The notes beneath the pieces were generated by a model, which saw only the letters and a program-made list of their open reading frames with translations, searched no databases and had not been told where the DNA came from. A stretch of DNA of 64,000 bases from an uncultured beta proteobacterium. Its GTDB lineage: Bacteria; Pseudomonadota; Gammaproteobacteria; Burkholderiales; SG8-39. Positions 22,282 through 61,882 of this stretch are shown piece by piece (position 1 is the first letter of the stretch; every line of letters begins with the position of its first letter). The position numbers and the translations under genes were made by a program. The stretch is from contig CAWBNB010000033.1 in the NCBI GenBank assembly GCA_963789885.1, positions 162,633-226,632 of the forward strand. Direction: 5' to 3'.

Positions 22282-22509
22282 AACCGCCGCCGCCCGTCCG
22301 GGCACCATTGAGTCACTCCTGGTGTTCGGCGGGATGGCCGAAGTCCGCAAGGGCGGTTGGCTTCCCGCCGCTTTTTTTCCCCGAACCCACTAAATTCACT
22401 GCCCGATCCGGGAGGTGATGGCGGAATCGAGCTGACGACCTGGCGCCGCGTCAACCGCTTGCGCCAAGCGCGCGATCGGCCCGCCAGCCGGTAGGGTATC
22501 CTCCCCGGA

Positions 22510-26255: not shown

Positions 26256-26263
26256 AGTCGACC

Positions 26264-26900
26264 ATGGCGAACGATTTCGAGGTCAGGCGGCGCGGCTGGA
26301 AGCGGTGGATCCCCGCCTGGGTGTGGCGCATCGGACCCTGGACGGCGGTGGCGCTCTTCGCCGCCGGCATCGTGTTCTGGGGCGGCTTCAACTGGGCGTT
26401 CGAGCTCACCAACACCGAGAACGTTCTGCACCTCGTGTCACGAGATGGAGGAGAACGTCTTCAAGGAGTACCGGCACACGATCCACTACACGAACCGGTC
26501 GGGCGTGCGCGCCACCTGCCCCGATTGCCACGTGCCGAAGGAATGGGGCCCGAAGATCGTCCGCAAGATCCAGGCCTCGAACGAGGTCCTCCACAAGGTG
26601 CTCGGCAGCATCGACACGCCGGAGAAGTTCCAGGCGAAGCGCTGGGCGCTCGCCGAGCACGAGTGGGCGCGGATGCGGGCGAACAATTCGCAGGAATGCC
26701 GCAATTGCCACAACTTCCAGTACATGGACCTGAGCGAGCAGGGGCGGCGGGCGAACGCGACGCATTCGGTCGCCTTCACCGAAGGCAAGACCTGCATCGA
26801 CTGCCACAAGGGGATCGCGCACCAGCTGCCGCCGATCGACCAGGCGATCGGTGCGCCGCGCGTTGAGCCGTCGGCGGGGAAGTTCGCCCCGCCTCGCTAG
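26264..26900 (+). pseudogene. napC: Tetrahaem quinol dehydrogenase NapC with a 1-nt insertion in the first haem motif
   Basis: The frame of ATG 26264 reads ..[19 protein letters not shown] and then nonsense. Removing the g at 26423 restores [42 protein letters not shown]...CRNCH...[10 protein letters not shown]. That is the frame of ORF 26445..26900. Confidence 0.85.
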
Positions 26901-48863: not shown

Positions 48864-49080
48864 GCTGTGCTGGCGGGACAATTGCTTATTAATCGGGGAA
48901 CGACCGACCATGTCGGCGTACGTTGGGCTGGAGCAGTTGTCCGATCAATGAACTACGGACGCGCCGCCCGACGAGGCACGTCGACGGGAATGACCAAAAG
49001 CGGTCGCGGCGCGTCAGGGCTTGTGACGTAGCGGGGCACTTCCGGCTGCAGTGGTAGTTATGGACGGGGAGAAGAACCGA

Positions 49081-50979
49081 ATGTTGATCACTGGCACCGA
49101 TGGGGATGACGTCCTGACCGGTACGGATGCCGCGATACGCTCGACAGGGTCTCGGCGGGAACGATATCCTGAATGGTGGAGCGGGTGACCGACATCCTGG
49201 AAGGCGGGGACGGCGACGACACCTATGTGTTCGGGCCAGGCTACGGCACCGACACGGTCAGCGACCTGGCGGCACCGACACGTACGACTCGACGGCGTCA
49301 CGCCCGACGACGTAAGCCTGCGTGCCTTCGGGGAAGGGCCTTGTCGTCACCATCAACGGGACCGGTGAGCAGCTGGTGCTGTCGAACTGGTTTGCCTCGC
49401 CACATCGAGTCGTTCGTGTTCGACGACGGCACCACGTCTGGACCGCGACGACCTCCTGGCCATCTGGACAACACCGCCGCCGACCGCGGTCGACGACTTC
49501 GCCAGCGTCCTCGAGGACGCGACGGCGCCGGTGACCGGCAACGTGCTCCAGAACGACCTCGACGAGTCCGGTACCGGGCTCACGGTCAAGAATGCAGGAG
49601 ACTACCAGGGGGCCTACGGGACGCTCTCGCTCGCGGCCGATGGGTCGTACAGCTACACTCTCAATTCGAGCCTGCCCGAGATCCAGGCGCTCGGCGCCGG
49701 GCAGACGCTTACCGAGTCGTTTGCGTACGGCGCGTTCTACGTCGTGAGCGACAACGTCCCCTTGAACCCCCAAGAAGCGACGGGCTATATCACCGTCACG
49801 GTGCAAGGCGTCAATGACGCCCCGGTCGTGGCGACCCCCCTCGCCAACCACGGCGCGACGGCGGGCCAGGCATTCTCCTTCGCCCTGCCGGCCGGTTCGT
49901 TCACCGACGCCGATACCGGCGACAGCCTCGCGTACAGCGCGACGCTCGCCGACGGTTCGGCGCTGCCGGCCTGGCTCGCGTTCAACCCGGGAACCGGGAC
50001 ATTCAGCGGTACCGCGCCCGGGGCAGCGGGCGGCACCACGCTCGAGATCGAGGTTACCGCGAGCGACCTCGCGGGCGAGCAGGCATCGGACGTCTTCGCC
50101 TTTGCGGTCGCCTCCCCGCCACCGCCGCCGTCGCACGACGGCCGGCACATCGTCGGCACGCGGCGCAAGGACCATCTCGACGGCACGTCCGGCGACGATT
50201 TCATCGAGGGCCGGAACGGCAACGACACTTTGCACGGGAAGGGCGGCGTCGACGTACTCCAGGGCGGACGCGGTAACGACAAGCTCGAGGATCGCGACGG
50301 GAACACGCTTTTCGACGGCGGGCGCGGCAATGACCGCCTGACCGGGGGCCGCGACGCCGACTTCTTCGCCGGCGGACGCGGCAACGACCGGCTCCAGCTC
50401 GGCGGCGGCGCCGACGTGGTCGCCTTCAACAAGGGCGACGGCGTCGACCGGCTGTTCGGGGAGCGCCAGGACGGCGTGCTGAGCCTCGGGGGCGGGATCC
50501 GCTACGAGGACCTGCGTCTGCGCAAGCAAGGCAACGATCTCGTGCTCCGGACGGGCGGCGGCGACCAGGTCGTCCTCGAGGATTGGTATCGCGGCCAGCA
50601 GTCGATCGTTACCCTGCAGGTCGTCGCCGAGGCGATGCGCGGGTTCAACCAGGGCTCGTGCGATCCGTTGCGCGACGACAAGGTCGAAACCTTCGACTTC
50701 CGCAAGCTGGTGGCCGCCTACGACGACGCGCGCGCCGCCCATCACCACATGCGGAGCTGGAACATGATGAACGAGCTCCTCGCCGCGCATCTCGGCGGCA
50801 GCGACTCCGCCGCGCTCGGCGGCGATCTCGCCTACCGCTACGGGATGACCGGCACGCTCGCCGGCGTCGGGCTGAGCACGGCGCGGGATACCGTTGCAGC
50901 ACCGGGATTCGGGACCGAGCTCCAGACCGTCCACTCCGCGGCGGCGGTCGGCTCGGATCCGGTCAAGCTCGGCGCCTAG
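49081..50979 (+). pseudogene. RTX-type calcium-binding secreted protein, 5' end broken by about 7 frameshifts
   Basis: Protein sense can be followed across frames. The pieces are MLITGTDGDDVLTGTDA / DTLD / GLGGNDILNGGAGD / DILEGGDGDDTYVFGPGYGTDTVSDL / LDGVTPDDVSLRAFGEG / GLVVTINGTGEQLVLSNWFAS / HIESFVFDDGTT. A single frame then runs from about 49441 (DRDDLLAIWTTPPPTAVDDF...) to 50979. That part carries VCBS-like and Ig-like modules and GGxGxD nonapeptides (GGRGNDKLE, GGRGNDRLT, GGRGNDRLQ). Confidence 0.8.
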
Positions 50980-51030
50980 CCGCTACCGCGCCGCGGTCTC
51001 GACCGCCAACGGGGTCCCCTCCGCCGCGTT

Positions 51031-51062: not shown

Positions 51063-53441
51063 CTACCAGTTCGTGTACGCGACCGAGAAGCCGAACACGT
51101 TGTTGTGGTAGGTCGGGCTCTGGTGCCCGGTCAGCAGCACGCTGTTCGTCGCGAAGGGGTTCCCGGGATACGCCCAGTCGCTCGAAGACAGATTCTGGTA
51201 CAGGTAGTTCAGGCGGAACAGCAGGCTCTTCGAGTACTGGTATTTCCCGTAAAGCTGAAAGTAGTTCGAGCTCATCGTGACGTCCGGGATCGGCTGCGCG
51301 CCCAGGGCACTGACTTGTCCCGGCGCCGCCCACGGTCCGCTGATCGAGTACCCCCCTGTGCCGTCGGTATACACGTACTGGCCGCCGACGTCGTACCTGT
51401 TGTCAGCCGGTTTGAAGTTGATGCCCAGACCGAAGGTGTTGCCGCTGTTCTTGATGGAGTCGTTGTAGTCGCGAGCCGTGCTCGTGCTGGTCGCCGCGTT
51501 CCACGCCCGGTTTGCCTGGTCGGTCGAGAACTGCGTGTAGGTGTAGAAGGCGAAGGCGTTCCAGCCCTCGGCGAACAGCCACGAGCCGTCGATCGAGTAC
51601 GTCTGCCCGACCACGTTCGTGAGGCCCTGGCACTCTGAGGGCATCGGGACGTTCGGCGGGATCTGATCGGGCGAGCCGCCACAGTTCGGTCCCTTGTACT
51701 GCGTCTGGTACCAGTTCGCGTTCAGGCCGATCGAGATCCGTTCGATCGGCGTGATCGTCCCGGTCGCGATGATCGCGTTCTTGTTGTAGTCCGCGAAAAT
51801 GAACTGGCGCAGCGTCGGCAGGTTGTTGATGTTCGCCGTGCTCGCGACTCGCCCGGCGGTGTATGCGGCGTAGTACGCGTTCTGGGACGCGAAGGTGGAA
51901 CCGCTCCGCTGGTCCCACACGTAGCGCAGCGCCCCGGTGAAGCTCTCGGACATGATCCGTCGCAGCTCGACCCCGAGGAGGTTGTTCTGGGTGTTGGCGC
52001 GAAATTCCCAGTTCGAGGGGCTGTAGCTCACGTTGGTGTACTGATACCAGCCCCGGAGCAGCGTGCGCTGGAAGATCTGGTAGTCGGCGTCGATCTTGAA
52101 CCGGTTCTCTGTGGCGTCGGTCGGCAGATTCGTGACGATCTGCGCGCTGGTGTTCGCGTTGTTGATAGGTGTGGGCTGGTTGTTCGCATCGCCCTGGACG
52201 TACGCGTACTGGTTGGACGGCGACGTGTTGTTGCGGTCCATGTAGTGGTAGTTCAGCTTCAGCGACAGCTTCGAAACCGGACGCATCAAGAATGTGAGAT
52301 CGACCAGCGTGTTCTTGATTTCACCGTTGAGTGAGGTGCGCGGCAGGCCGACCGGCACCAGCAGGTTCGTCCCCGGGGTCTGTGCAGCGGTGTTGATGGT
52401 GTAAGGCAGGAACGGATCGTTCTGCGACATCACGCTGTAGGAGACCGTGCCCGTCAGCCGCATGCTGGGCGTGAAGTTCCACGCCCCGGTCGCCTGGGCC
52501 TGCCAGAAGTCGTTGCTCGGCATCAGCCCCATCCGGCCAAAGCCAGTGGGGAAGCCGCTACCACCAGCGAAGGCGAGGCTACCGGCGCCGGCGCCGCTGG
52601 CGTAGGGGTTCTGCCAAACCAGCGAATTCGCGTCGTTGTCGTACTTCGAGTACCAGTAGGAAAGGTTGAGCTGCCCCTGCTTCCCGCCCCACTCCGCCTT
52701 TACCTGGACCTGCTGCTGCGTGTCGTTGATCTGGTAGGGCAGGATCATCGAGCGCCCGCCGGGGCTGACCCCCATGAGCGACCCGATCAGCTTCGTGCCA
52801 TCGCGGTCGATCTGGCCGTAGTCCGCCGAAATCTTCCAGTCCCCGAGATGGAAGCCGCCGCCGGCCTTGTACACGTCCCAATCCTGCTTGACGTCGAACC
52901 CCTGGAGAAACGGCGAGAACGCTCCGGCAAGGGTGGGATTGTTCACGCCGGCGTTCTGCGGCACGTTCGGAAACCCTGCCGGGGTGGTCAGCCTGCTGCC
53001 GCCGGTTCCGTTCAGGATGAACTTCGTGTCGTTGAACTGGGACCGCTGCAACTGGTCCCACCCGGCATTGACCCAATAGAGGCCCTGCCTGCCGAATTCA
53101 GCCCCCAGCTGGAACGTGGGCAAGCCGAAGTTGTATGCGGAAGCGTTCAGGTAGTTCGCGCCATCACCGTAACGCTCTCGCACGTTCGCGTTGCCGATCA
53201 GGAATCCGCCCGAGTGCGTCAGGCCGGTGAACTCCCCGAACTTGAACGAGCTATTGCTGTTGTAGCCCCACCCAAGCTCGAGGTAGTTGGAGTCGTAGCG
53301 CGTCATGTCCGCGCCCGTGGTCAGCGGAACCTGGAACATCGGTTCGGCGAGCGCCGCGCTCGACGTCGCGAGGGCGAGCGCGACCGCGGAGACCAGAGGC
53401 TTGAGCGGGTGATCCTTCCCTGCCCGGGTGGCCTTTGTCAT
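51063..53441 (-). CDS. MtrB/PioB/MtoB-family outer-membrane beta-barrel (porin of a porin-cytochrome complex)
   Basis: 792 aa. Signal peptide ..LVSAVALALATSSAALA; alternating beta-strand pattern with aromatic residues; C-terminal ..FGFSVAYTNW; N-terminal YLELGWGYNSNSSFKFGEFTGL typical of the family. It lies directly downstream of a decahaem MtrA-type gene. Confidence 0.85.
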   Translation of the reverse strand: MTKATRAGKDHPLKPLVSAVALALATSSAALAEPMFQVPLTTGADMTRYDSNYLELGWGYNSNSSFKFGEFTGLTHSGGFLIGNANVRERYGDGANYLNASAYNFGLPTFQLGAEFGRQGLYWVNAGWDQLQRSQFNDTKFILNGTGGSRLTTPAGFPNVPQNAGVNNPTLAGAFSPFLQGFDVKQDWDVYKAGGGFHLGDWKISADYGQIDRDGTKLIGSLMGVSPGGRSMILPYQINDTQQQVQVKAEWGGKQGQLNLSYWYSKYDNDANSLVWQNPYASGAGAGSLAFAGGSGFPTGFGRMGLMPSNDFWQAQATGAWNFTPSMRLTGTVSYSVMSQNDPFLPYTINTAAQTPGTNLLVPVGLPRTSLNGEIKNTLVDLTFLMRPVSKLSLKLNYHYMDRNNTSPSNQYAYVQGDANNQPTPINNANTSAQIVTNLPTDATENRFKIDADYQIFQRTLLRGWYQYTNVSYSPSNWEFRANTQNNLLGVELRRIMSESFTGALRYVWDQRSGSTFASQNAYYAAYTAGRVASTANINNLPTLRQFIFADYNKNAIIATGTITPIERISIGLNANWYQTQYKGPNCGGSPDQIPPNVPMPSECQGLTNVVGQTYSIDGSWLFAEGWNAFAFYTYTQFSTDQANRAWNAATSTSTARDYNDSIKNSGNTFGLGINFKPADNRYDVGGQYVYTDGTGGYSISGPWAAPGQVSALGAQPIPDVTMSSNYFQLYGKYQYSKSLLFRLNYLYQNLSSSDWAYPGNPFATNSVLLTGHQSPTYHNNVFGFSVAYTNW

Positions 53442-53473
53442 CTTCGTGCTCCCTTATCTTGAGCCGCTGACGC

Positions 53474-54454
53474 TCAGCGAACAAAGAAACGGCCGGACGG
53501 ATGGTTGCTCCCGTGGACCTTGGAGTGGCAGTTCGCGCACCCCTGACCGAGCATCTGGGCACCCGGCGCGATGGGCGCAGCCCCCGTCGATCCCGGGTAG
53601 GGCGGAATGTTGCTGCCGCTGTAGAGGGTGCTCGGATGTCCGGAGACCGAATGGCACTGCTGGCAGAGGAACGGCGCGCGCACCTTCAGTAGCGACGGGT
53701 TGTTGGCGCCGTGCGGGTTGTGGCATTCAGCGCAGTTCTCCCGTGCCGGCGGATGCTCCCAGAGGAACGGGCCGCGCTTGTCCCCATGGCACGTGTAGCA
53801 GGTCTCGTTGACCGTGTTGCGGATCAGGTTGAACTCCGAGACCGAGCCGTGCGGCTGATGGCAGGACGAGCAGGTCATCCAGCCGGTGCGCAGCGGGTGG
53901 GTCGAGAAGCCGAAGATCTGGGCTCGCTTTTCCTTGTGGCAGGTAAAGCACACGCCCGCCTGTGTCTCCTTCACCAGCACCTGGTCCCTCGCCGCATGGA
54001 CGGTGTGGCACGACGCGCACGTGAGTTGCGAGCGCTCGTGCCCGCTGCCCTGGAAATGAATGCGGTTACCACCCTGGTGACAGGTTAGGCACGCCGCCAC
54101 CTGGACGTTAGGCGGCGTCGTATCGTTGTTCCGCTTGAAGGTGCGGTCCGGCTTCGGCCGCTCCTTCGCGTCCGCCGGCTTGTTGATGTGGTTCTCGCTA
54201 TCGCCGTGGCAGCTCGTGCAGGTCGGCGTGCGCTGGTCCGCGTTCACGCCGTGGCGCGTCTTGGCGATCGCCAGGACCGGGTACTCGTCCTCCGCGTCGT
54301 GACAGCGCGTGCACTTCGCGTCGCCCTTCAGGACGAGGTCCTTGGGGGCCTCCTTCTTGGCCTCCTGGGCCTGCACCGCGAGCACCAGGCCAAGGGCGAC
54401 GACAACACCCCCCAGCGCGGTTCCGAACCGGCCGATCACCCCTTCCATCTCCAT
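53474..54454 (-). CDS. MtrA/DmsE/MtoA-family periplasmic decahaem c-type cytochrome
   Basis: 326 aa with a signal peptide. There are exactly ten CxxCH motifs: CTRCH, CTSCH, CLTCH, CASCH, CFTCH, CSSCH, CYTCH, CAECH, CQQCH and CANCH. Confidence 0.9.
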   Translation of the reverse strand: MEMEGVIGRFGTALGGVVVALGLVLAVQAQEAKKEAPKDLVLKGDAKCTRCHDAEDEYPVLAIAKTRHGVNADQRTPTCTSCHGDSENHINKPADAKERPKPDRTFKRNNDTTPPNVQVAACLTCHQGGNRIHFQGSGHERSQLTCASCHTVHAARDQVLVKETQAGVCFTCHKEKRAQIFGFSTHPLRTGWMTCSSCHQPHGSVSEFNLIRNTVNETCYTCHGDKRGPFLWEHPPARENCAECHNPHGANNPSLLKVRAPFLCQQCHSVSGHPSTLYSGSNIPPYPGSTGAAPIAPGAQMLGQGCANCHSKVHGSNHPSGRFFVR

Positions 54455-54514
54455 CTCCTCTCCCTCCGGGGCGCGCGGCGCTGGCCCGCTCTTCGCGCCC
54501 GGGTTCGATGCAAG

Positions 54515-55120
54515 TTACTTGTCGATCTTCAGCTCCTGGGGTCCCGGCCCGCCTTCGGGCTCCTTGTGCGCGATACCGAAGTGACAGTCGATGCAGGTCT
54601 TGCCCTCGGCCTTGCCCTTCGCGTGCCGCGCCTTGGCGCGCTCGGACTGCAGATCGGAGCTCATCGCGTCGGCGTGATGGCAGTTGCGGCACTCGAGCGA
54701 GTCCGTCTTCTTCATCCGGGTCCAGACGTGGGTCGCGAGCTCGTACCGGTGCGCCTCGAACTTTTCCTTCGTGTCGATGACGCCGGTGAGCTTCCCCCAG
54801 ATCTCGAAGGTGGCGAGCACCTTGCGCCAGATCATCGGGCCCGGCTCGCGCGGGACGTGGCAGTCCGGGCAGATGGCGCGTACGCCGGTCCGGTTGGTGT
54901 CGTGGATCGTGCCCTTGTACTCGGCGTAGACGTTGTCGCGCATCTCGTGACAGGAGATGCAGAACTTCTCGGTGTTCGTCCAGGCGAGACCCGCGGCGCC
55001 GGCGACCACGAACCCACCGGTAATGACGAGGATGACGAGCGCGGTTACTGCGACCCGCAACGCGACCCGCGCGCGGCTCTTCGATTCGCCGCGAATCGCC
55101 TCCCAGATCTTCCTGAACAT
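54515..55120 (-). CDS. NapC/NirT/CymA-family membrane-anchored tetrahaem quinol dehydrogenase
   Basis: N-terminal TM (VAVTALVILVITGGFVVAGAAG). Four CxxCH motifs: CISCH, CPDCH, CRNCH and CIDCH. It is clearly a paralogue of the napC in this window. Confidence 0.9.
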   Translation of the reverse strand: MFRKIWEAIRGESKSRARVALRVAVTALVILVITGGFVVAGAAGLAWTNTEKFCISCHEMRDNVYAEYKGTIHDTNRTGVRAICPDCHVPREPGPMIWRKVLATFEIWGKLTGVIDTKEKFEAHRYELATHVWTRMKKTDSLECRNCHHADAMSSDLQSERAKARHAKGKAEGKTCIDCHFGIAHKEPEGGPGPQELKIDK

Positions 55121-55153
55121 CGCCGCCCTCCCTGCGTGCGATCTACAACCCGC

Positions 55154-55501
55154 TCAGCGCGACAGGATCCACTCGATCACGTTGTTGATCTCGCCCTCGT
55201 TCTTGGTCTTCAGCGAGTCGTGCAGCTCTTCCTTGCCATCGAGCTTGATCTTGGGATTGGTCGTCAGATGGACGAAGAGGGTCTTCTGGGCGTCCGGCTT
55301 GTCTTTGTACTTGGCCGCGGTTTCCTTGAACGACGGGCCGTCCTTCTTGCGATCGACCGAGTGGCACTTGAAGCAGTTGCTCTTCTTCATCAGGGCTTCG
55401 GCCGCACCGGCGTCGAGGGCAAACGCGTTGGTTGCCACGACCGATCCGAGGATCGCCGCGCACCCGCCGCCAATCACTGCCCCGAAGACCTTGCGTCTCA
55501 T
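55154..55501 (-). CDS. Monohaem class I c-type cytochrome (MtoD-like position)
   Basis: 115 aa. Signal peptide MRRKVFGAVIGGGCAAILGSVVATNAFA and a single CFKCH. It is the first gene of the four-gene cluster. Confidence 0.8.
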   Translation of the reverse strand: MRRKVFGAVIGGGCAAILGSVVATNAFALDAGAAEALMKKSNCFKCHSVDRKKDGPSFKETAAKYKDKPDAQKTLFVHLTTNPKIKLDGKEELHDSLKTKNEGEINNVIEWILSR

Positions 55502-55672
55502 GTCAGTCTTCCTCGCCGAATCCGTCTACTTTAGAACCACTTTTGATCGAAGGGAAGGTCGGGTCAATTTTGGTGTATGCGGATGGCCGGTCAGCCCCGA
55601 TGACTGCGCGAGCGACCGCCTCGTAGGCCCCGTACCGCCCGTTGCGGGGAGGGGGCTCGGTGCAGCGGCGGG

Positions 55673-56252
55673 CGAGATCGGACCAGAACTCATGCGGGAT
55701 CCCCGGCCGGGGGGGCGGACCGTGTCGCCACACCCCGCATTGCTCGGACCACCAGGGCTGCAGCGCGCGCGTGACGGGCGCCGGCACCGCCAGTGCCTGC
55801 GGCCCGAGCAGCGCTGCGAGTGCCCGGCCCAGGTCGCCGGCGGCGATCGCTCGCAGGTATGACTCGGTGGACTCGGCGTTGGAGGGCCGTGCGCGGCGCG
55901 CGTATCGCGGCACCACTGCGGAACGAAAGCCCGTGGCAGCGCCGCCGCGGGACCTCAGCTTGGGGAGGCGCACCGGCACTCGGCCGATGCCGGTGACGAT
56001 CATCCGCTCCGGGTGCAGTCCGTTTCGGACCACGCCACGCGACCCTTCCGCGAGGCCTGGCTGAACGGGCTGTCCCCGGAAGTGCCGGAGCTCCGCGTTG
56101 ATCGCCTCCACGATCAGGGATCGGGCGCTCTCCCGCAGCACGGCGGCCAGTGCATTCACGCCGTCCTCCGAGATCGGCGCCCTCGACGCCGCCGCGCCGT
56201 TCGACCCGTATAGAGCCTCGCAGACTTGCCTCAGGTTTCGGTCGACGCTCAT
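55673..56252 (-). mobile_element. IS256-family transposase N-terminal remnant (DDE domain missing)
   Basis: VVRNGLHPERMIVTGIGRVPVRLPKLRSRGG..FRSAVVPRYARR...YLRAIAAGDLGRALAALLGPQA..VTRALQPWW resembles the N-terminal half of IS256-family transposases as I recall them. The similarity ends before the catalytic region. The ORF then reads through to 55503, 2 nt from the cytochrome start. Confidence 0.55.
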
Positions 56253-56559
56253 CACCGCACAGATTACTTTCGCTGCACCGCAGCGCAGTTGACGAACATC
56301 AGAACAGGCGGGCTCGGGAGCAATCTTGATGCAATTACGCGACACGCCCGCTTTGCCGGGGCCGCGAAGCCTGGCCGGCGCCTATCGGCCGCGATCTACC
56401 CCGTGCCGGCCCCCGAGGCCGGACTCGCACCCGACCCTTTAACGGAGCGGGCGATTCGCGCGCGGCCGCCGGGCGCATCGAGCGATTGATTCAGGTCAAC
56501 TCGGCAAGCGCGAAAGAGAGTCTGCTAATCTGAAGGTGATGTCAGGAGGGGGCGCTTAT

Positions 56560-57657
56560 ATGAACGCCGAGCAGTGGATCGACAGGTGTGGCCCGCGAGC
56601 CTTGACAGCAAGGCGGCTCGTGTGGGTCGTATGGGCAGTTGCTTTCGCTGCGCCATTCACGTCGCAAGTGGCGAACGCTCAAGGCACCGAGCGGAGCGGC
56701 AAGGACGTGGTCGAGTCGGTCTGCATCACGTGCCACGGAACGGGCGCGCAAGGTGCGCCCAAGATCGGCGACCGGAAAGCGTGGAGCAAGCGCGCGTCGC
56801 AAGGTCTCACCAGCCTCACCGAACACGCGCTCAAAGGGATCCGGCAGATGCCGGCACACGGCGGCAGCCCCAATCTCACCGATCTGGAAATCGCGCGCGC
56901 GATCGCTTACATGGTCAACCGGTCGGGCGGCCACTGGGTCGAGCCTGCCAGCGCAAAGGACCTGGCGGGCGAACGTACCGGCAAGGAGATCGTCACGGCG
57001 CAGTGCGCCAAGTGCCACCAGACCGGCGAGGGCGGCGCGCCCAGGATCGGCGACCGGAACGCCTGGGCACCGCGAATGGGGCAGGGCTTCGACAATCTGG
57101 TTCATTCCGCGATCAAAGGGCACGGCGGAATGCCGGCTCGCGGCGGTATGGCCGACGCGACCGATGCGGAGATCCGGAACGCGATCAACTACATGTTCAA
57201 CCCCGCTGCTGCGGCCCCGCAGAAGGCCGGCGCCGCGGCGAAATCGGCCGCCGCGCCGCCCGCCAAGCCGGGGGGCAAGCGCGTAACCGTGAGCGGGATG
57301 GACGTGTACCTCGGGTTAGTCTCGGCGGAGACCCTGCGCGGTTATCCGCGAGACGCCGTGGAGAGATCGATGCATGGCGGGGTTCCGAGCGGCGCCGGCC
57401 AGTATCACGTGAACGTTTCCCTGTTCGATGCCAAGACCGGGGCGGCCATCCCCAACGCGGAGGTGGAAGTGGAGATCGACGAGGTCGGGATGACGAGCGA
57501 GTCGAAGAAGCTCGAGCCGATCGTGATCCACGATACCGCGAGCTACGGGAACTACTTCAAGCTGAGCGGAAAGACGTCTTACGAAATTATCGTGCGGGTT
57601 AAAAAACCGGGTTCGTCGCAATCCGTTGAGGCCAGGTTCGAGCACAAGACCAGCTGA
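56560..57657 (+). CDS. Dihaem cytochrome c5-type protein fused to an unassigned ~130-aa C-terminal domain
   Basis: ATG at 56560 preceded by aggaggggg, with a signal/anchor segment. There are two c5-like units (CITCHGTGAQGAPKIGDRKAW...MPAHGG and CAKCHQTGEGGAPRIGDRNAW...MPARGG). An Ala/Pro linker follows, then a beta-rich domain (YHVNVSLFDAKTGAAIPNAEVEVEIDEVG...YGNYFKLSGKTSYEIIVRVKKPG). Confidence 0.8.
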   Translation: MNAEQWIDRCGPRALTARRLVWVVWAVAFAAPFTSQVANAQGTERSGKDVVESVCITCHGTGAQGAPKIGDRKAWSKRASQGLTSLTEHALKGIRQMPAHGGSPNLTDLEIARAIAYMVNRSGGHWVEPASAKDLAGERTGKEIVTAQCAKCHQTGEGGAPRIGDRNAWAPRMGQGFDNLVHSAIKGHGGMPARGGMADATDAEIRNAINYMFNPAAAAPQKAGAAAKSAAAPPAKPGGKRVTVSGMDVYLGLVSAETLRGYPRDAVERSMHGGVPSGAGQYHVNVSLFDAKTGAAIPNAEVEVEIDEVGMTSESKKLEPIVIHDTASYGNYFKLSGKTSYEIIVRVKKPGSSQSVEARFEHKTS

Positions 57658-57691: not shown

Positions 57692-58921
57692 CTAAGGCAC
57701 GGCGGCCTCGATTACGACCGCGACCCCGGTCGCACCGACCTTCACCGGCTTCGAGACGCCCTGCAGGTCGCCGCTCTGAGCCATCGGGTTACCGGACCGT
57801 GAGATCCGCGCGCCCACCACCACTTCCGTGGCACCCGAGAGCTTCCGGTCCGGTGCCATGGCCATCGTGTCGTCGAGGGAGAACTCGAGGGGGAGGTCCT
57901 TGACCTGGCGCCGCATCACCGCGAGCGGCGGGCCGGGACCGCCGGTGGCGCGCGCGAAGACGAACACGGTGTCGGTAGGCGCGGCTTTCGACGCGAGCTC
58001 GGCGGCGAGGCGCACCGTACCCGCAACCTTGGCTGCGGCGGCGGCCGCCTTGGCGGCGGGCGCGTTCGCAGTGGGTGCCTTCGCCGCCGGGTTGGCTGCG
58101 GCGAGCTCGCGCGCTTTCGCGATGCTCGCGCCGACGGCATGCGCCTCCTCTGAACCCGGCTCGAGGCGGGACTGCACTTTCTCCCACTGGCGGATCGCGC
58201 CGGCGTAGTCCTCGCGCTGGAACGCGACCGCGCCGCTCAGCATCAACCCGAGCGGATTCTCCGGATCGAGCTCGAGCGCGCGCGCGACGAGCTCGGCCGG
58301 CTTGCCCTGGAGGTTGCCGCCGTGGGCGAGCGCGAGCGACTCCGCGTAGTCGACGAGGAGCCGCGAGTCGTTGGCGACGACTTTCTCCGCCTTGGCGTAG
58401 GCCTGCGCGGCCTCCTCGTTGCGGCCGAGCACGCGGTACGAGCGGCCGAGCATCGCCCATCCTTCGGCGTCGTCGGGCCGGTTCTGGAGGCGCTGCGCCA
58501 GCTTGTCGACCATCGCTTCGATGTCGGCCCGCCCGAGTTGCGGCTGCGTCTCCTCCGGGTTGAGCGCCCCCGGGGCGCCGAGGAGGAGGTAGAGCCCCGC
58601 CGCCGTGACCGGAAGCGCGATCGCCGTCGCGACGGCGGCAATCGGGCGGCGGCGCGCCGCCGACGGCGCGCTCTCCGCGACCGCGGTGTCTTCGAGGAGC
58701 CGGCGCTTCAGTTCGAGCTTCGCCTGCTCGTACTCCGGGCTGGCGATCGTGCCGGCCGAGTGGTCGCGCTCGAGCTCGGCGAGCTGGTCCCTGAGGACGG
58801 CGGCATTGGTCGCTGCGGCGTCGGCGGCCGCAGAGGCGCGCGGCGCCCGCGCGAGCGGCCACAGCAGGAATCCCAGCGTCGCCGCGACGAGGGCGAGCGC
58901 GCCAAGCGCGAAGAGGATCAT
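57692..58921 (-). CDS. ccmI: Cytochrome c maturation protein CcmI (CycH)
   Basis: ATG at 58921. N-terminal TM MILFALGALALVAATLGFLLW, a second TM, TPR-like repeats (GWAMLGRSYRVLGRNEEAAQAYAKA), and a C-terminal domain. It is last in the ccm operon. Confidence 0.85.
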   Translation of the reverse strand: MILFALGALALVAATLGFLLWPLARAPRASAAADAAATNAAVLRDQLAELERDHSAGTIASPEYEQAKLELKRRLLEDTAVAESAPSAARRRPIAAVATAIALPVTAAGLYLLLGAPGALNPEETQPQLGRADIEAMVDKLAQRLQNRPDDAEGWAMLGRSYRVLGRNEEAAQAYAKAEKVVANDSRLLVDYAESLALAHGGNLQGKPAELVARALELDPENPLGLMLSGAVAFQREDYAGAIRQWEKVQSRLEPGSEEAHAVGASIAKARELAAANPAAKAPTANAPAAKAAAAAAKVAGTVRLAAELASKAAPTDTVFVFARATGGPGPPLAVMRRQVKDLPLEFSLDDTMAMAPDRKLSGATEVVVGARISRSGNPMAQSGDLQGVSKPVKVGATGVAVVIEAAVP

Positions 58922-59409
58922 GCGGGGCGGTCGTCCCCCGCCTCGCCGAGGAGCCGCGCGACGCGCGCCTCCTCCTCGGGCGAGAGCGCCGCCGCCACCA
59001 CGCGCGTGCGCCGCCGCCGGACGTACCAGGCGAGCCCGCCGGCGGCCGCCGCAAGCAGCACGAACGGCCCCGCCCAGAGCGCGGCGGTGGTGCCCTTGAG
59101 CGGCGGGCGATAGCGGATGAAGTCGCCGTAGCGATCGGTCATGTAGGCGAGGATCTGGTCGTCGCTGCGGCCGGCCTTGATCTGCTCGCGGATCTGGCGG
59201 CGCAGATCCTGGGCGAGGTCGGCGCGCGAGCCGGCGAGCGACTCGTTCTGGCAGACGAGGCAGCGGAGCTCCTCCGCGATCGCGTTCAGGCGCCGCTCGA
59301 CCGCTTCGTCCTCGGCGAGCGGCCGCGCTGCCTGCGCGAGCACCGTGCCGGCGAAGGCGAGCAGCGCGAGCAGGGAGAGCGCCAGCCCGAGAGCGCCGAG
59401 TCGCTTCAC
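58918..59409 (-). CDS. ccmH: Cytochrome c maturation protein CcmH
   Basis: GTG start overlapping the ccmG stop. LRCLVCQNESL motif and a C-terminal TM. Confidence 0.85.
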   Translation of the reverse strand: MKRLGALGLALSLLALLAFAGTVLAQAARPLAEDEAVERRLNAIAEELRCLVCQNESLAGSRADLAQDLRRQIREQIKAGRSDDQILAYMTDRYGDFIRYRPPLKGTTAALWAGPFVLLAAAAGGLAWYVRRRRTRVVAAALSPEEEARVARLLGEAGDDRPA

Positions 59410-59930
59410 TTCCCAAGCTCCTTCAGGAGCGGCGCGATCTTCTTCTCGACCGTCTCGGGGGTCACCGGCCCGATGTGCTTCAGGCGGATCACGCCCGCCT
59501 GGTCGATCACGTAGGTCTCGGGGACGCCGTAGACGCCGTAGTCGATCCCCACGCGGCCGTCGACGTCGACCGCGCTCGCGACGTAGGGGTCTCCTAGCTG
59601 CTTGAGCAGCCCGAGCGCATCGTCGCGGCGGTCCTTGTAGTTGAGCCCGTAGATCGGCACGGTCTTCGTCCCCGACAGCTTCATCAGTACCGGGATCTCG
59701 TCGCGGCAGGGCGCGCACCACGACGCCCACACGTTCAGGACCCAGACCTTGCCGCGGAGCGCCTCGGGCGAGAGCTTCTCGCCGGGCTCGTCGAGGCGCG
59801 GGAGCGAGAACGCTGGCGCCGGCTTGCCGACGAGCGGCGAAGGGACCTCGCGCGGATTGAGCGAGAGGCCGATCGCCAGCAGGAGAACGAGCAGCCCGAA
59901 CGCACCGAGCGCGAGAACGAGCCGCGTCAT
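59406..59930 (-). CDS. ccmG: Thiol:disulfide oxidoreductase CcmG/DsbE
   Basis: N-terminal anchor, WASWCAPCRDE thioredoxin motif, and GVYGVPETYVID. Confidence 0.9.
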   Translation of the reverse strand: MTRLVLALGAFGLLVLLLAIGLSLNPREVPSPLVGKPAPAFSLPRLDEPGEKLSPEALRGKVWVLNVWASWCAPCRDEIPVLMKLSGTKTVPIYGLNYKDRRDDALGLLKQLGDPYVASAVDVDGRVGIDYGVYGVPETYVIDQAGVIRLKHIGPVTPETVEKKIAPLLKELGK

Positions 59931-61882
59931 CCGCGCGCCCCGCCGCCGGCGAGCGCGGCGGCGAACCGCTCGGCCACCCGCACCCGGTAGCGGCGGTCGG
60001 AGGCGGCGAGGAAGCCGCCGAACGCCATGAACAGCGCGCCGAACCAGATCCAGTCGACGAACGGCTTGTGGTGGGCGCGCACGCTCCAGGCGCCGCCGTC
60101 GAGCGGTTCGCCGAGCGAGACGTACACGTCGCGCGTGAGGCCCGTGTCGATCGCGGCCTCGGTCATCGGCATCTGCGACGAGAAGTAGGCGCGCTTCTCG
60201 GGCCGCATCGTGCGCAGCACCTGGCCGTCGCGCTCGAGCGTGAGCTCACCGCGGCTCGCGCGGTAGTTCGGGCCGTCGACCTCGCGCACGCCGGCGAAGC
60301 GGAGCTGATACGGGCCGATCGCCACCGTTTCGCCCGGCGCCATGCGCACGTCCTTCTCCGACTCGTAGCCCTTGACGAGGGCGACGCCGGTCACGCACAC
60401 CGCGAGGCCGAGATGCGCGAAGTGCATCCCGTACCATGCCCGCGGCTGGCGCGGTCCGCCCTGCACGATCCGTTCGCGGATGTTCGCCGCGGTCGCGCAG
60501 GCCACCCACGCTGCGAGTGCGGCACCGAGCGCCGCGAGCGGCTGCCAGCCGCCGAGCGCGAACGGCACACCGATGCCGGCCGCGACCGCGACCGCAGCGG
60601 GCACCGCGAGCCGCCGGGCGATCGCGCGCGCCGAGGCTTCCTTCCACCGCGCGAACGGGCCGGTCGCGACGAGGAAGAGGAGCGGCACCATCAGCGGCAC
60701 GAAGACCGCGTTGAAATAGGGCGGGCCGACCGAGAGCTTGCCGAGACCCATCGCGTCGATCACGAGCGGGTAGAGCGTGCCGAGCAGGACCGAGGCGGCC
60801 GCCACGACCAGGAGGACGTTGTTCGCGAGCAGCAGCGATTCGCGCGAGACGAGCGCGAACTGGCCGCCGGTCGCCGTGCGCGGGGCGCGCAACGCGAACA
60901 GCACGAGCGAGCCGCCGATGACCAGCGTGAGCAGCGCGAGGATGAAGACGCCGCGCCGCGGATCGGTCGCGAACGCGTGCACCGACGTGAGCACCCCCGA
61001 GCGCACGAGGAAGGTGCCGAGCAGGCTGAGCGAGAATGCGGTGATCGCGAGCAGCACGGTCCAGCTCTTGAACGCACCGCGCTTGTCGGTCACCGCGAGC
61101 GAGTGGATGAGGGCGGTGCCAACGAGCCACGGCATGAAGGACGCGTTCTCGACCGGGTCCCAGAACCACCAGCCGCCCCAGCCGAGCTCGTAGTACGCCC
61201 AGTAGCTGCCGAGGGCGATGCCGAGCGTGAGGAAGATCCAGGCGGCGATCGTCCACGGCCGCGACCAGCGCGCCCACGCCACGTCGAGCCGGCCCGCGAT
61301 CAGCGCGCCGAGGGCGAACGCGAATGCCACCGAGAAGCCGACGTAACCCATGTAGAGCATCGGCGGATGGAAGATGAGGCCGGGATCCTGCAGGAGCGGG
61401 TTGAGGTCGCGCCCGTCGGACGGCGGCGGCAGGACGCGCTCGAACGGGTTCGACGTGAACAGGGTGAACAGCATGAACCCGGCGCTCACCAGGCCGAGCA
61501 CGCCGAGGACGCGCGCGACCATCGCGTCGGGGAGCTGCCGGCTCGCGATCGACACCGCGGCCGACCAGCCCGAGAGCATGAGGAGCCACAGGAGGAGCGA
61601 TCCTTCGTGGCCGCCCCAGGTGGCGGCGAACCGGAACGGCGTGGGCAGCTTCGAGTTCGAATGGTTGGCGACGTAGGCCACCGAGAAGTCGTTGCCGACG
61701 AACGCGAGCGCGAGGCAGCCGAACGAGAAGAGGACCAGCAGGAACTGGGCGCGGGCGGCGGGTCGGGCGATCGCGATCCAGCGGGCATCGCCGCGCGCCG
61801 CGCCGACGAGCGGCAGCACGCCCTGCACCGCGGCGACGCAGAGCGCGAGGATCAGTGCGAAATGGCCGAGCTCGGGGGTCAT
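59927..61882 (-). CDS. ccmF: Cytochrome c haem lyase subunit CcmF
   Basis: 651 aa and polytopic. [18 protein letters not shown] is the WWD motif. Confidence 0.95.

Follow-up and report, generated by a model that had tools for sequence, protein, structure and literature searches.

What does a tightly packed set of cytochrome and outer-membrane barrel genes do in an uncultured member of the Burkholderiales, and how is it controlled? We addressed this question in a 64-kb stretch of DNA, hereafter the window, in which a preliminary description had claimed four co-directional, closely spaced genes matching the mto cluster of the Fe(II) oxidizer Sideroxydans lithotrophicus ES-1. As can be seen in Table 1, the four ORFs all lie on the minus strand, and their coordinates give intergenic gaps of exactly 33, 60, and 32 nt, as claimed.

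Table 1. Features of the mto locus, in coordinates of the window
Feature	Position	Strand	Description
mtoB	51063..53441	-	792-aa MtrB/PioB-family outer-membrane barrel
mtoA	53474..54454	-	326-aa periplasmic decahaem cytochrome, ten CxxCH
cymA/imoA-like	54515..55120	-	201-aa NapC/NirT-family tetrahaem cytochrome, one N-terminal membrane helix
mtoD	55154..55501	-	115-aa class I monohaem cytochrome, signal peptide (…NAFA/LD)
Upstream gene	55503..56252	-	Short IS256/Mutator-transposase-derived protein; core ~55728-56141
Cis element	55539..55576	-	Conserved; putative right-inverted-repeat relic; promoter/operator candidate
FNR/Anr-type box TTGACCTGAATCAA	56486..56499	.	Divergent intergenic region, 247 nt 5' of upstream gene ATG
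Dihaem cytochrome c neighbour	56536..57657	+	Divergent; PF13442, PF00034 twice
System I ccmI, ccmH, ccmG, ccmF	57692..61882	-	Pfam CcmH/CycH, Redoxin, CcmF; ccmE to ccmA lie beyond

The Four Genes Encode a Complete Set of Mto-Family Proteins

Counting CxxCH motifs gave one in the monohaem cytochrome, four in the NapC/NirT-type tetrahaem protein, ten in the decahaem protein (precisely the number announced beforehand), and none in the barrel. All four genes are full length relative to their counterparts in related genomes and show dN/dS values of 0.10-0.26 in comparison with a relative at 91% MtoA identity. They are therefore genuine genes under selection, not open reading frames arising by chance in GC-rich DNA. 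In profile searches, all of the mto proteins pass the curated family cut-offs wherever one applies, and the MtoD, CymA/ImoA, MtoA, and MtoB families of ES-1 are all matched.

The decahaem protein, MtoA, which carries a Sec signal (…VQA/QE), belongs to the MtrA/DmsE family: it scores 270.6 bits against TIGR03508 (DmsE-family decahaem; cut-off 192.2) and matches Shewanella baltica MtrA (6R2Q_A) with an E value of 5e-70 and 42% identity over 303 residues. Extracellular DMSO respiration by a DmsEFAB system was considered and rejected, because dmsAB are absent beside the locus, where the neighbours are RTX-like, type I secretion, dihaem cytochrome c, and ccm genes. As for the barrel, its anticipated place in the MtrB/PioB family is borne out by 354 bits against PF11854 (cut-off 23) and 322.8 bits against TIGR03509 (cut-off 240), as well as by the position of its start just past mtoA. 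MtoB has a signal peptide (…SSAALA/EP) and an aromatic C-terminal residue (…AYTNW), matches S. baltica MtrB (6R2Q_B) across its full length (E 3e-7), and is 85% identical to the MtoB of the related locus L002, with a dN/dS of 0.26.

[quoted passage not shown] It scores under the NapC and TorC equivalog cut-offs and is therefore not filed as NapC, with which it nevertheless shares 58% identity over the haem domain of the napC product encoded in the same window. This likeness, together with a shift of frame in napC between the membrane anchor and the first CxxCH, and with the role of Shewanella CymA as a hub for several reductases (PMC8805035), could mean that the main task of the CymA-like protein and MtoD is to supply NapAB, the periplasmic nitrate reductase whose genes lie 25 kb away, the two acting as its quinol dehydrogenase and shuttle. 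We consider this very unlikely. An assembly error may account for the napC frameshift, and cymA, mtoD, and mtoAB are inherited as a unit even in loci without nap genes nearby (e.g., L085); a role in serving NapAB would, moreover, be compatible with conduit function.

The best solved relative of the monohaem protein is Sideroxydans MtoD (4XXL; E 1.6e-23), whose ligand identities (His47 and the distal His95) come from PMC4412085. The protein in the window is likewise a bis-His cytochrome, with His47 and His94 as ligands, the latter aligned with the distal His95 of 4XXL; no Met is placed as distal ligand in it, and the bis-His pair is invariant in 58/58 homologues. Since 2026, the ES-1 pathway has been held to run via a fifth protein, PmcA, and not via MtoD; in ES-1, MtoD binds neither ImoA nor MtoA, PmcA being the partner in its stead (PMC13390432). 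A CxxCH census of the 64 kb found no PmcA-type His/Met monohaem protein, the only other c-type ORFs being NapB, NapC, the dihaem protein, and one with a chance motif; nor was there a monohaem ORF 3' of cymA in the ES-1-type loci that were fetched. Here mtoD abuts cymA and PmcA is missing, raising the possibility that the CymA-type protein truly has MtoD as its partner, unlike in ES-1.

The Conduit Belongs to a Large Betaproteobacterial Radiation and Has Close Relatives Transcribed in Soil

The Mto radiation is large, with >600 matches among species genomes, and the gene order mtoD-cymA-mtoA-mtoB recurs in 21 of 82 loci. In an MtoA tree with S. baltica MtrA as a long-branch outgroup and without PioA or PioB sequences, the MtoA of the window sits in a 10-member clade of Burkholderiales and Casimicrobiaceae MAG sequences (SH-aLRT 99), itself nested in an 80-row betaproteobacterial clade (SH-aLRT 97) that also includes MtoAs from MAGs of Gallionella, Sideroxydans, and Sideroxyarcus. 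The conduit is an ordinary member of the betaproteobacterial Mto radiation.

Conservation extends beyond the four genes. A neighbourhood of ccm, dihaem c, upstream gene, mto, RTX, and type I secretion genes is shared by L001-L004, L087, and L088, and the ccmA-to-ccmI order is identical in L002. The dihaem cytochrome c, a possible candidate for a periplasmic partner of the conduit, is syntenic in L002, L003, and L088 and lies near mto clusters in L010 and L031; its C-terminal domain weakly resembles P19/FtrA Fe-transport proteins (PF10634; E 5.6e-4, 20.6 bits, under the cut-off of 21). The habitat is soils and wetlands. The mto genes of close relatives are transcribed in soil, where metatranscriptome contigs 90-99.6% identical to the locus span mtoD, cymA, mtoA, and parts of mtoB, with a depth that peaks on mtoD, contig depth being a poor measure of expression.

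What is directly established for the conduit comprises gene integrity, family membership, haem ligands, purifying selection, synteny, and the soil transcripts of relatives. That it is a functional Mto-type porin-cytochrome conduit in an uncultured soil or wetland member of the Burkholderiales is, in our judgment, highly probable. It would add such organisms to a very large set able to exchange electrons with iron minerals or humics, an addition that helps in interpreting iron and nitrogen cycling from metagenomes but comes as no surprise.

A Transposase-Derived Gene and a Putative Inverted-Repeat Relic Precede mtoD

The module as preliminarily described stands for its four genes but left out a conserved fifth gene and the cis elements upstream of mtoD. 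The product of this upstream gene retains the dimerisation, N-terminal DNA-binding, and HTH domains of IS256-family transposases such as ISCth4 TnpA (6XG8) and lacks the DDE catalytic domain, so that PF00872 and NF033543 are matched over their N-terminal part only. Residues 1-130 of the IS256 transposase bind the ends of the element. The protein belongs to a short family of 25 clusters (178-287 aa, 48-91% identity vs. 36-40% to full-length transposases), the profile of which matches the ISCth4 transposase from residue 28 to ~175. Consistently, a fold model of moderate confidence (pLDDT 68) has 6xg8_A as its top match. An active IS256-family insertion sequence was rejected, as the short family is without the D, D, and E columns and the window contains no second inverted repeat.

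The gene lies directly 5' of mtoD in seven lineages, between which MtoA has diverged to ~50% identity; all have kept the DNA-binding domains, and the catalytic part has been deleted to varying extents. Its core shows dN/dS values of 0.19-0.24 and an excess of third-position changes in three comparisons; in an independent soil strain, third codon positions likewise account for 15 of the 22 differences. Unlike IS256 elements, the gene is single copy, fixed beside mtoD, and under purifying selection, without a DDE domain or a left inverted repeat; being single copy, fixed, and selected, it displays the pattern of domestication.

As in the ISCth4 element, for which a domain map and a -35 element within the right inverted repeat have been described (PMC7780238), the gene is followed by a stretch that is similar to the inner part of the right inverted repeat and includes a -35-like hexamer. 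This 14-bp motif, ACACCAAAATTGAC (55576-55563), is similar to the right inverted repeat found in an active relative and overlaps the hexamer TTGACC (55567-55562), which is followed, after a 17-nt spacer, by AAAAGT (55544-55539), 66 nt 5' of the mtoD ATG. In five lineages, AAnAGT stands exactly 17 nt from the hexamer. No left inverted repeat or inverted copy of the motif occurs in the 64-kb window. The exact motif is present once in each of eight fetched loci with the upstream gene and in 0/80 others, and the ninth locus with the gene, L087, has a one-base variant. Gene and motif thus co-occur strictly (9/9 loci with the gene vs. 0/79 without it), and the motif is read in different frames across loci.

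These features are what is new here: a conserved, catalytically dead IS256 fragment, together with its old binding site, that sits at the promoter and may regulate the operon. We see an even chance that the upstream gene encodes the domesticated DNA-binding module of an IS256 transposase and that this module, by binding the inverted-repeat relic over the mtoD -35, modulates the operon; the protein would act on the motif ACACCAAAA within 55520-55600. The wider proposal, that the N-terminal half of a transposase and the inner right inverted repeat were co-opted as an EET regulator-operator-promoter cassette, placed between an ancestral FNR-dependent promoter and mtoD and selected in several Burkholderiales lineages, is tentative and falls just short of an even chance. 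If true, it would be a clean prokaryotic case of a transposase that has become a local transcription factor, a counterpart of the Mutator-derived factors known from plants. Mutator-derived transcription factors and other transposase-derived regulators are its eukaryotic analogues (bioRxiv 10.64898/2026.08.24.746577).

Alternatively, gene and motif might together be a slowly decaying IS256 insertion whose protein is functionless and whose relic is kept solely as the mtoD -35. Several observations fit this reading, which we find doubtful though quite possible. The ends of IS256-family elements contain outward-facing -35 elements and give rise to hybrid promoters (PMC7780238), and the 14-bp motif could be conserved purely as promoter. 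The tail of the ORF, which reads through the mtoD promoter and ribosome-binding site, is only weakly constrained (dN/dS 0.4-0.6), and the soil metatranscriptome contigs leave the gene almost uncovered. It is also absent from many sister clusters and, because it is scattered on the MtoA tree (≥5 gains or losses), dispensable. However, functionless decay sits poorly with the constraint on the core, with the third-position excess extending to the independent soil strain, with DNA-binding domains retained in all seven lineages, and with the strict co-occurrence of protein and motif.

An FNR-Type Box and the Direction of Electron Flow

A second cis element lies in the divergent intergenic region. 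It is the sole match to TTGAYN4RTCAA in the 64 kb (0.05 expected), occupies the same position in L002, L003, and L088, and is also found 5' of the upstream gene in L043 and L085 (as near-matches in L085). In relatives, FNR-type boxes occur in 20 of 59 regions upstream of mtoD, where ~1 would be expected. From this we infer that the conduit may be regulated by an FNR-type factor via the box at 56486-56499. We found no description of the regulation of the mto pathway in the literature; expression in ES-1 is known only to follow solid Fe(II), and the enrichment of boxes provides a testable hypothesis of oxygen control. The box itself fits either direction of electron flow.

As for how the conduit would work, MtoB is predicted to form an outer-membrane barrel around the decahaem MtoA. 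A search of the 64 kb for CxxCH in all six reading frames found no MtrC/OmcA-type or any further multihaem ORF, so that the locus is not of the MtrCAB type, and since there is no MtrC-type partner, MtoA itself would meet the extracellular redox partner. The soluble bis-His MtoD and the membrane-anchored CymA/ImoA-type protein would link MtoA to the quinone pool as well as to high-potential acceptors in the periplasm, and the adjacent ccm operon would mature the 15 haems.

The preliminary description held that the direction of flow cannot be read from the sequence, and we agree. We lean modestly towards electron uptake at low oxygen, with Fe(II) minerals or other reduced solids being oxidised. 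The hints are the lack of MtrC, the MtoD-type bis-His cytochrome, and the detection of MtoA and ImoA in ES-1 only on solid magnetite (bioRxiv 10.1101/2024.09.20.614158). Conversely, the CymA-like protein could oxidise quinol in anoxia and, by way of MtoD and MtoA, deliver the electrons outside the cell to Fe(III), Mn(IV), humics, or an anode. The FNR-type box, which suggests low-oxygen induction, and the soil and wetland habitat would suit such an outward conduit. In Shewanella, ImoA can take the place of CymA in oxidising quinol, and electrons can travel from CymA to MtrA on either MtoD or PmcA (PMC13390432). Homologues of mtoD and cymA are also found with the MtrCAB clusters of Group 4 of Baker et al., which is dominated by Betaproteobacteria, and the betaproteobacteria that these authors list as carrying MtrCAB include the Fe(III) reducer Albidoferax ferrireducens (PMC8805035). 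Yet the window encodes no MtrC/OmcA-type surface cytochrome, and the nearest named relatives of known physiology are iron-oxidising Gallionellaceae. The potential of ES-1 MtoD is +155 mV, and a high-potential acceptor has been proposed as the recipient of its electrons (PMC4412085, PMC13390432); a similar value here would make MtoD a thermodynamic sink on the outward path (PMC4412085). We regard outward flow as unlikely, the small remaining probability going to bidirectional or other use of the conduit.

Comparison with Known Systems

In ES-1, the corresponding genes encode MtoD (Slit_2498), MtoA (Slit_2497), MtoB (Slit_2496), CymA/ImoA (Slit_2495), and PmcA (Slit_2494). Both systems have the same four families in one co-directional cluster, a bis-His MtoD, no MtrC, and proteins with ten, four, and one haems. 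Against L073, a Sideroxydans sp. MAG locus used as proxy for ES-1 (its MtoD is ~90% identical to the 4XXL sequence), identities are 47% for MtoA, 48% for MtoD, 54% for CymA, and 25% for MtoB. The locus differs from that of ES-1 in its gene order (mtoD-cymA-mtoA-mtoB vs. mtoD-mtoA-mtoB-cymA-pmcA), in its MtoD subtype (LTTNPK…GKEE.H vs. ITSGEK…GHEEEH), in its host, a high-GC soil member of the Burkholderiales and not of the Gallionellaceae, and in the IS256-derived gene and inverted-repeat relic upstream.

With Shewanella MtrCAB (6R2Q), which works mainly outwards, the locus shares an MtrA-type decahaem protein that is 42% identical and an MtrB-type barrel that aligns end to end. In contrast to MtrCAB, it has no MtrC, and CymA and a periplasmic carrier are encoded within the cluster. 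PioABC of Rhodopseudomonas palustris TIE-1, which is used for electron uptake, is similarly an MtrAB-type two-component conduit without MtrC. However, the decahaem protein described here is without the long N-terminal extension of PioA (~540 aa), no HiPIP (PioC) gene is adjacent, and, unlike in PioABC, a NapC/NirT cytochrome and MtoD are present.

An intact four-gene set for a predicted electron conduit

The four co-directional genes lie exactly where the preliminary description had placed them, separated by gaps of 33, 60 and 32 nt, and its count of exactly ten CxxCH motifs in the decahaem cytochrome proved right, the other three ORFs having one, four and none. When set against the MtrB/PioB profiles, the barrel falls inside that family rather than outside it, with 354 bits for PF11854 and 323 bits for TIGR03509 (curated cut-off 240). 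The decahaem protein scores as a member of the DmsE/MtrA family (TIGR03508, 271 bits; cut-off 192) and the tetrahaem protein as NapC/NirT (PF03264, E 1e-65), the latter remaining under the NapC and TorC equivalog cut-offs. Among solved structures, the small cytochrome is best matched by Sideroxydans lithotrophicus ES-1 MtoD (4XXL, E 1.6e-23), the decahaem protein matches MtrA of Shewanella baltica MtrCAB (6R2Q_A, E 5e-70, 42% identity), and the alignment of the barrel with MtrB (6R2Q_B) runs the full length. As read from the sequence, three of the four proteins carry cleavable signal peptides, the tetrahaem protein is anchored by one N-terminal membrane helix, and the last residue of the barrel is aromatic. 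These family scores and structure matches, together with dN/dS values of 0.10-0.26 against L002 (a metagenomic relative whose MtoA is 91% identical), establish that the four genes are real and intact.

Every defining feature of the claimed MtoA, MtoB, MtoD and CymA/ImoA gene set that can be read at the sequence level is present, and those of MtrC, PioC, DmsAB and PmcA were not found at the window locus. By these features, the conduit is classed as a predicted new member of the Mto/Mtr/Pio type already known. The absence of dmsAB speaks against DmsEF, and that of both an adjacent HiPIP gene and an extended PioA-type N terminus against PioABC; both readings were rejected.

Features of the mto locus and of compared loci (window coordinates unless a locus is named)
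Feature	Position	Strand	Description
mtoD-type monohaem gene	55501-55154	minus	115 aa, 1 CxxCH, class I cytochrome c
cymA-like tetrahaem gene	55120-54515	minus	201 aa, 4 CxxCH
mtoA decahaem gene	54454-53474	minus	326 aa, 10 CxxCH
mtoB barrel gene	53441-51063	minus	792 aa, 0 CxxCH
Upstream gene (transposase-derived)	56252-55503	minus	ends one base before mtoD start codon
Inverted-repeat-like motif	within 55520-55600		ACACCAAAA + TTGACC, upstream of mtoD
FNR-type box	56486-56499		upstream of the upstream gene
Dihaem cytochrome c gene	56536-57657	plus	divergent from mto operon
RTX/cadherin-like gene	about 49000-51000		converges on mtoB
napC	26256-26900	plus	frame change
Tandem mtoD paralogues, L005	6409-7168		ahead of cymA
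Tandem mtoD paralogues, L006	6302-7196		ahead of cymA
Tandem mtoD paralogues, L008	6290-7168		ahead of cymA
Tandem mtoD paralogues, L009	6423-7170		ahead of cymA

Relatives and genomic neighborhood

A protein search with the decahaem sequence scored 8,000 candidates, of which 6,797 were relatives; those with names are mostly Burkholderiales MAGs. A scan with one genome per species gave at least 600 stretches, 594 of them confirmed, from which the best 80 loci were taken. In a maximum-likelihood tree, the window MtoA and that of L002 belong to one clade (SH-aLRT 99) whose 10 rows come from Burkholderiales and Casimicrobiaceae MAGs; this clade is nested in an 80-row betaproteobacterial radiation (support 97) that also contains MtoAs from Gallionella, Sideroxydans and Sideroxyarcus MAGs, with S. 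baltica MtrA as a long-branch outgroup. For MtoA and MtoB of ES-1 and PioA and PioB of TIE-1, this tree uses substitutes, namely loci from Sideroxydans and Gallionella MAGs and the MtrA sequence from the PDB, and so it does not separate Mto from Pio. ES-1 was represented by two Sideroxydans sp. loci, L073 and L064, whose MtoD is ~90% identical to the 4XXL sequence. The stretch occurs in public metagenome runs from soil, wetland, sediment and wastewater. In L007, a contig binned as "uncultured Myxococcaceae," an mtoAB pair nests among the closest Burkholderiales relatives of the window, which reflects either horizontal transfer or a binning error. L001, a 1.08-Mb ENA contig of the same species, is near-identical to the window with many frame breaks (ccmF is fragmented, and just six CxxCH of mtoA are in frame), which look like long-read indel error rather than biology.

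The window shares with L001-L004, L087 and L088 a neighborhood comprising ccmA-I, a divergent dihaem cytochrome gene, a short upstream gene and the mto genes, continuing into a convergent RTX/cadherin-like gene and then type I secretion genes. The RTX/cadherin-like gene has HemolysinCabind, Cadherin_4 and He_PIG domains and, together with the HlyD and ABC type I secretion genes after it, is syntenic with mto in L001, L002, L004 and L087. The C-terminal domain of the dihaem cytochrome is a borderline PF10634 (P19/FtrA Fe2+ transport) match, at 20.6 bits against a cut-off of 21, and its gene recurs beside mto clusters in L002, L003, L088, L010 and L031. The mto module of L085 is located elsewhere, between surE-pcm-nlpD and an MFS gene, consistent with the modular mobility described for Mtr clusters (PMC8805035). 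A repeat search around the mto cluster found only short chance repeats, and a hairpin after mtoB is no better than in shuffles (z −0.6).

The nearest GTDB relatives (L005, L006, L008 and L009) have two tandem mtoD copies ahead of cymA, and in L005 and L008 a Crp-like cyclic-nucleotide-binding gene and a GGDEF gene lie just upstream, in place of the transposase-derived gene. Other loci vary in gene content: L062 (Duganella alba FT9W) has two full MtoA-MtoB pairs in opposite orientation and a third, weakly MtoA-like match, L011 a second MtoA-like gene after mtoB, and L024 a dihaem MtoD-like ORF after cymA.

Electron path and partner cytochromes

Homology to MtrAB (6R2Q) and MtoAB predicts that the barrel sheathes the decahaem protein and that the haem chain of the latter crosses the outer membrane. 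There is no MtrC-type or any other multihaem ORF in the whole 64-kb window, so MtoA itself would have to meet the external partner. As for the monohaem protein, its ligand residues predict an MtoD rather than a PmcA type. In the alignment, His47 and His94 fall on His47 and His95, the bis-His ligand pair of MtoD (PMC4412085), both are invariant in 58 of 58 homologues, and the window protein has no Met able to act as distal ligand; PmcA is His/Met (PMC13390432). No PmcA-like gene is present at the window locus, nor was a monohaem ORF found after cymA in the ES-1-type loci, which leaves the haem ligands by themselves to distinguish MtoD from PmcA.

The CymA-like protein has CxxCHxM at its first haem, a motif typical of NrfH/CymA quinol sites (PMC10654088), and shares 58% identity with the haem domain of the NapC encoded in the window. 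In that napC gene, the frame changes between the membrane anchor and the first haem motif (FCTSCHEM…), which indicates either a pseudogene or an assembly error.

A transposase-derived gene upstream of mtoD

The upstream protein matches only the N-terminal part of IS256/Mutator transposases in profile searches. It belongs with short proteins of 178-287 aa that form 25 clusters (48-91% identity) and are distinct from full-length transposases, which are 407-426 aa long and only 36-40% identical. A single-sequence search of the PDB gave no match for it; the family profile matched 6XG8, the ISCth4 transposase, from residue 28 to about 175 (E 3.5e-11). That stretch corresponds to the dimerization (1-56), N-terminal DNA-binding (56-108) and HTH (108-165) domains of ISCth4, which bind the subterminal transposon end (PMC7780238). 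In an AlphaFold model (pLDDT 68, pTM 0.72), a long helix leads into a four-stranded sheet, which is followed by a three-helix bundle; the best Foldseek match of the model is 6xg8_A (probability 0.95, E 0.047). The catalytic D, D, E columns of the full-length relatives are absent from all short members; the extent of the deletion varies by lineage, and the N-terminal domains persist.

The gene lies directly 5′ of mtoD-cymA-mtoA-mtoB in every readable context, in seven lineages (window, L001-L003, L012, L043, L085-L088), including the relocated L085. Its core (residues 38-175) has a dN/dS of 0.19-0.24, third positions being clearly over-represented among the changes, and its tail is weakly constrained (0.4-0.6). 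An independent soil strain differs at 22 sites over 246 nt, 15 of them third codon positions, without gaps. The short-protein family, fixed context, retained domains, core dN/dS and unequal catalytic deletions argue that this gene is more than debris. The distribution of the gene on the MtoA tree is scattered, two well-supported clades together requiring five or more gains or losses; this implies repeated loss, or movement between clusters, and a conduit that can do without the gene. Conversion of transposases to regulators has eukaryotic parallels in the Mutator superfamily (bioRxiv 10.64898/2026.08.24.746577).

A probable inverted-repeat relic and candidate oxygen-control boxes

The interval from the upstream gene's core to mtoD contains the motif ACACCA[AG]A[AT]TTGAC, found exactly once in each of eight fetched loci with the upstream gene, with a one-base variant in the ninth (L087), and in none of 80 others. 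Its reading frame varies between loci, giving YTKID in the window and DTPNLT in L085, so the conservation is at the DNA level and not at the protein level. The motif resembles the inner part (CACCAA[GA]ATT) of the right inverted repeat of an active transposase relative (six copies, L089-L094), CGTCACCAAGATTCGCGCATAGCTC, which starts 8 nt after the stop codon. In mto loci it ends in TTGACC, followed in five lineages by AAnAGT at exactly 17 nt, and the −35 hexamer in these lineages starts 66-89 nt ahead of the mtoD start codon. Outward −35 elements are known in IS256-family right ends (PMC7780238). No promoter emerged from a σ70 consensus scan, and terminator-like sites were no more frequent than chance predicts. 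The relic is likely to form the −35 region of an mtoD promoter and is also the predicted binding site of the retained DNA-binding protein. A left inverted repeat was sought and not found, a near-match at 22312 (two mismatches) being at chance level.

In the fetched loci, TTGAYN4RTCAA occurs in 20 of 59 regions, each the 260 nt upstream of the first mtoD, against about one expected (background 0.017 per 260 nt); among the regions of L005-L084, such boxes accompany both the gene order of the window and that of ES-1. FNR/Anr-type boxes are thus candidates for a general oxygen control of mto clusters. Where the upstream gene is present, no box lies between it and mtoD (0 of 7 lineages), and in five of seven the box lies upstream of it, L085 having near-matches only; the window box is the sole match in 64 kb (0.05 expected). 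In the simplest history, an IS256-family element would have landed between mtoD and an FNR-dependent promoter; the catalytic part would later have decayed, while the DNA-binding half and right end were kept.

Contigs of two soil metatranscriptomes, 90-99.6% identical to mtoD, cymA, mtoA and parts of mtoB, show that the mto module is transcribed in soil; they derive from close relatives, are sparse and give no transcription start. Summed contig depth, a poor measure of expression, peaks on mtoD, and the upstream gene has almost no contig coverage.

Direction of electron flow

As the preliminary description had cautioned, nothing in the sequence decides the direction. The CXXC motif of Shewanella MtrB, a possible marker of direction, does not enter into this argument. 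On balance we lean slightly toward electron uptake, for which we count the absence of MtrC, the MtoD-type cytochrome, the sequence kinship with iron-oxidizing Gallionellaceae, and the detection of ES-1 MtoA and ImoA only on solid magnetite (bioRxiv 10.1101/2024.09.20.614158). Outward reduction, which we regard as rather unlikely, gains from several cautions on uptake: the Betaproteobacteria-dominated Group 4 MtrCAB clusters of Baker et al. also carry mtoD and cymA homologues, their listed betaproteobacterial MtrCAB carriers include the Fe(III) reducer Albidoferax ferrireducens, and Mto and Pio proteins form no function-specific clades (PMC8805035); moreover, ImoA can oxidize quinol in Shewanella (PMC13390432). 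The FNR-type boxes do not settle the direction, since low-oxygen control fits anaerobic reduction as well as Fe(II) oxidation that is microaerobic or nitrate-dependent.

Comparison with known Mto systems

The conserved transposase-derived gene with its putative promoter relic, and the general FNR-box enrichment, lift this conduit slightly above the ordinary; neither is described in PMC8805035, PMC6295460, PMC10654088 or PMC13390432. In ES-1, a 2026 study found that MtoD (+155 mV) binds neither ImoA nor MtoA and proposed that it feeds a high-potential acceptor such as an oxidase, whereas PmcA (−143 mV) binds both (PMC13390432). The window differs from ES-1 in having no PmcA-like gene, in its MtoD subtype and in that mtoD abuts cymA; here MtoD may be the partner of the CymA-like protein. 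Its order, mtoD-cymA-mtoA-mtoB, departs from the mtoD-mtoA-mtoB-cymA(-pmcA) of ES-1; among the loci compared, each order occurs in 21, the others having mtoAB alone or different combinations, so that the arrangement seen in the window is a common variant.
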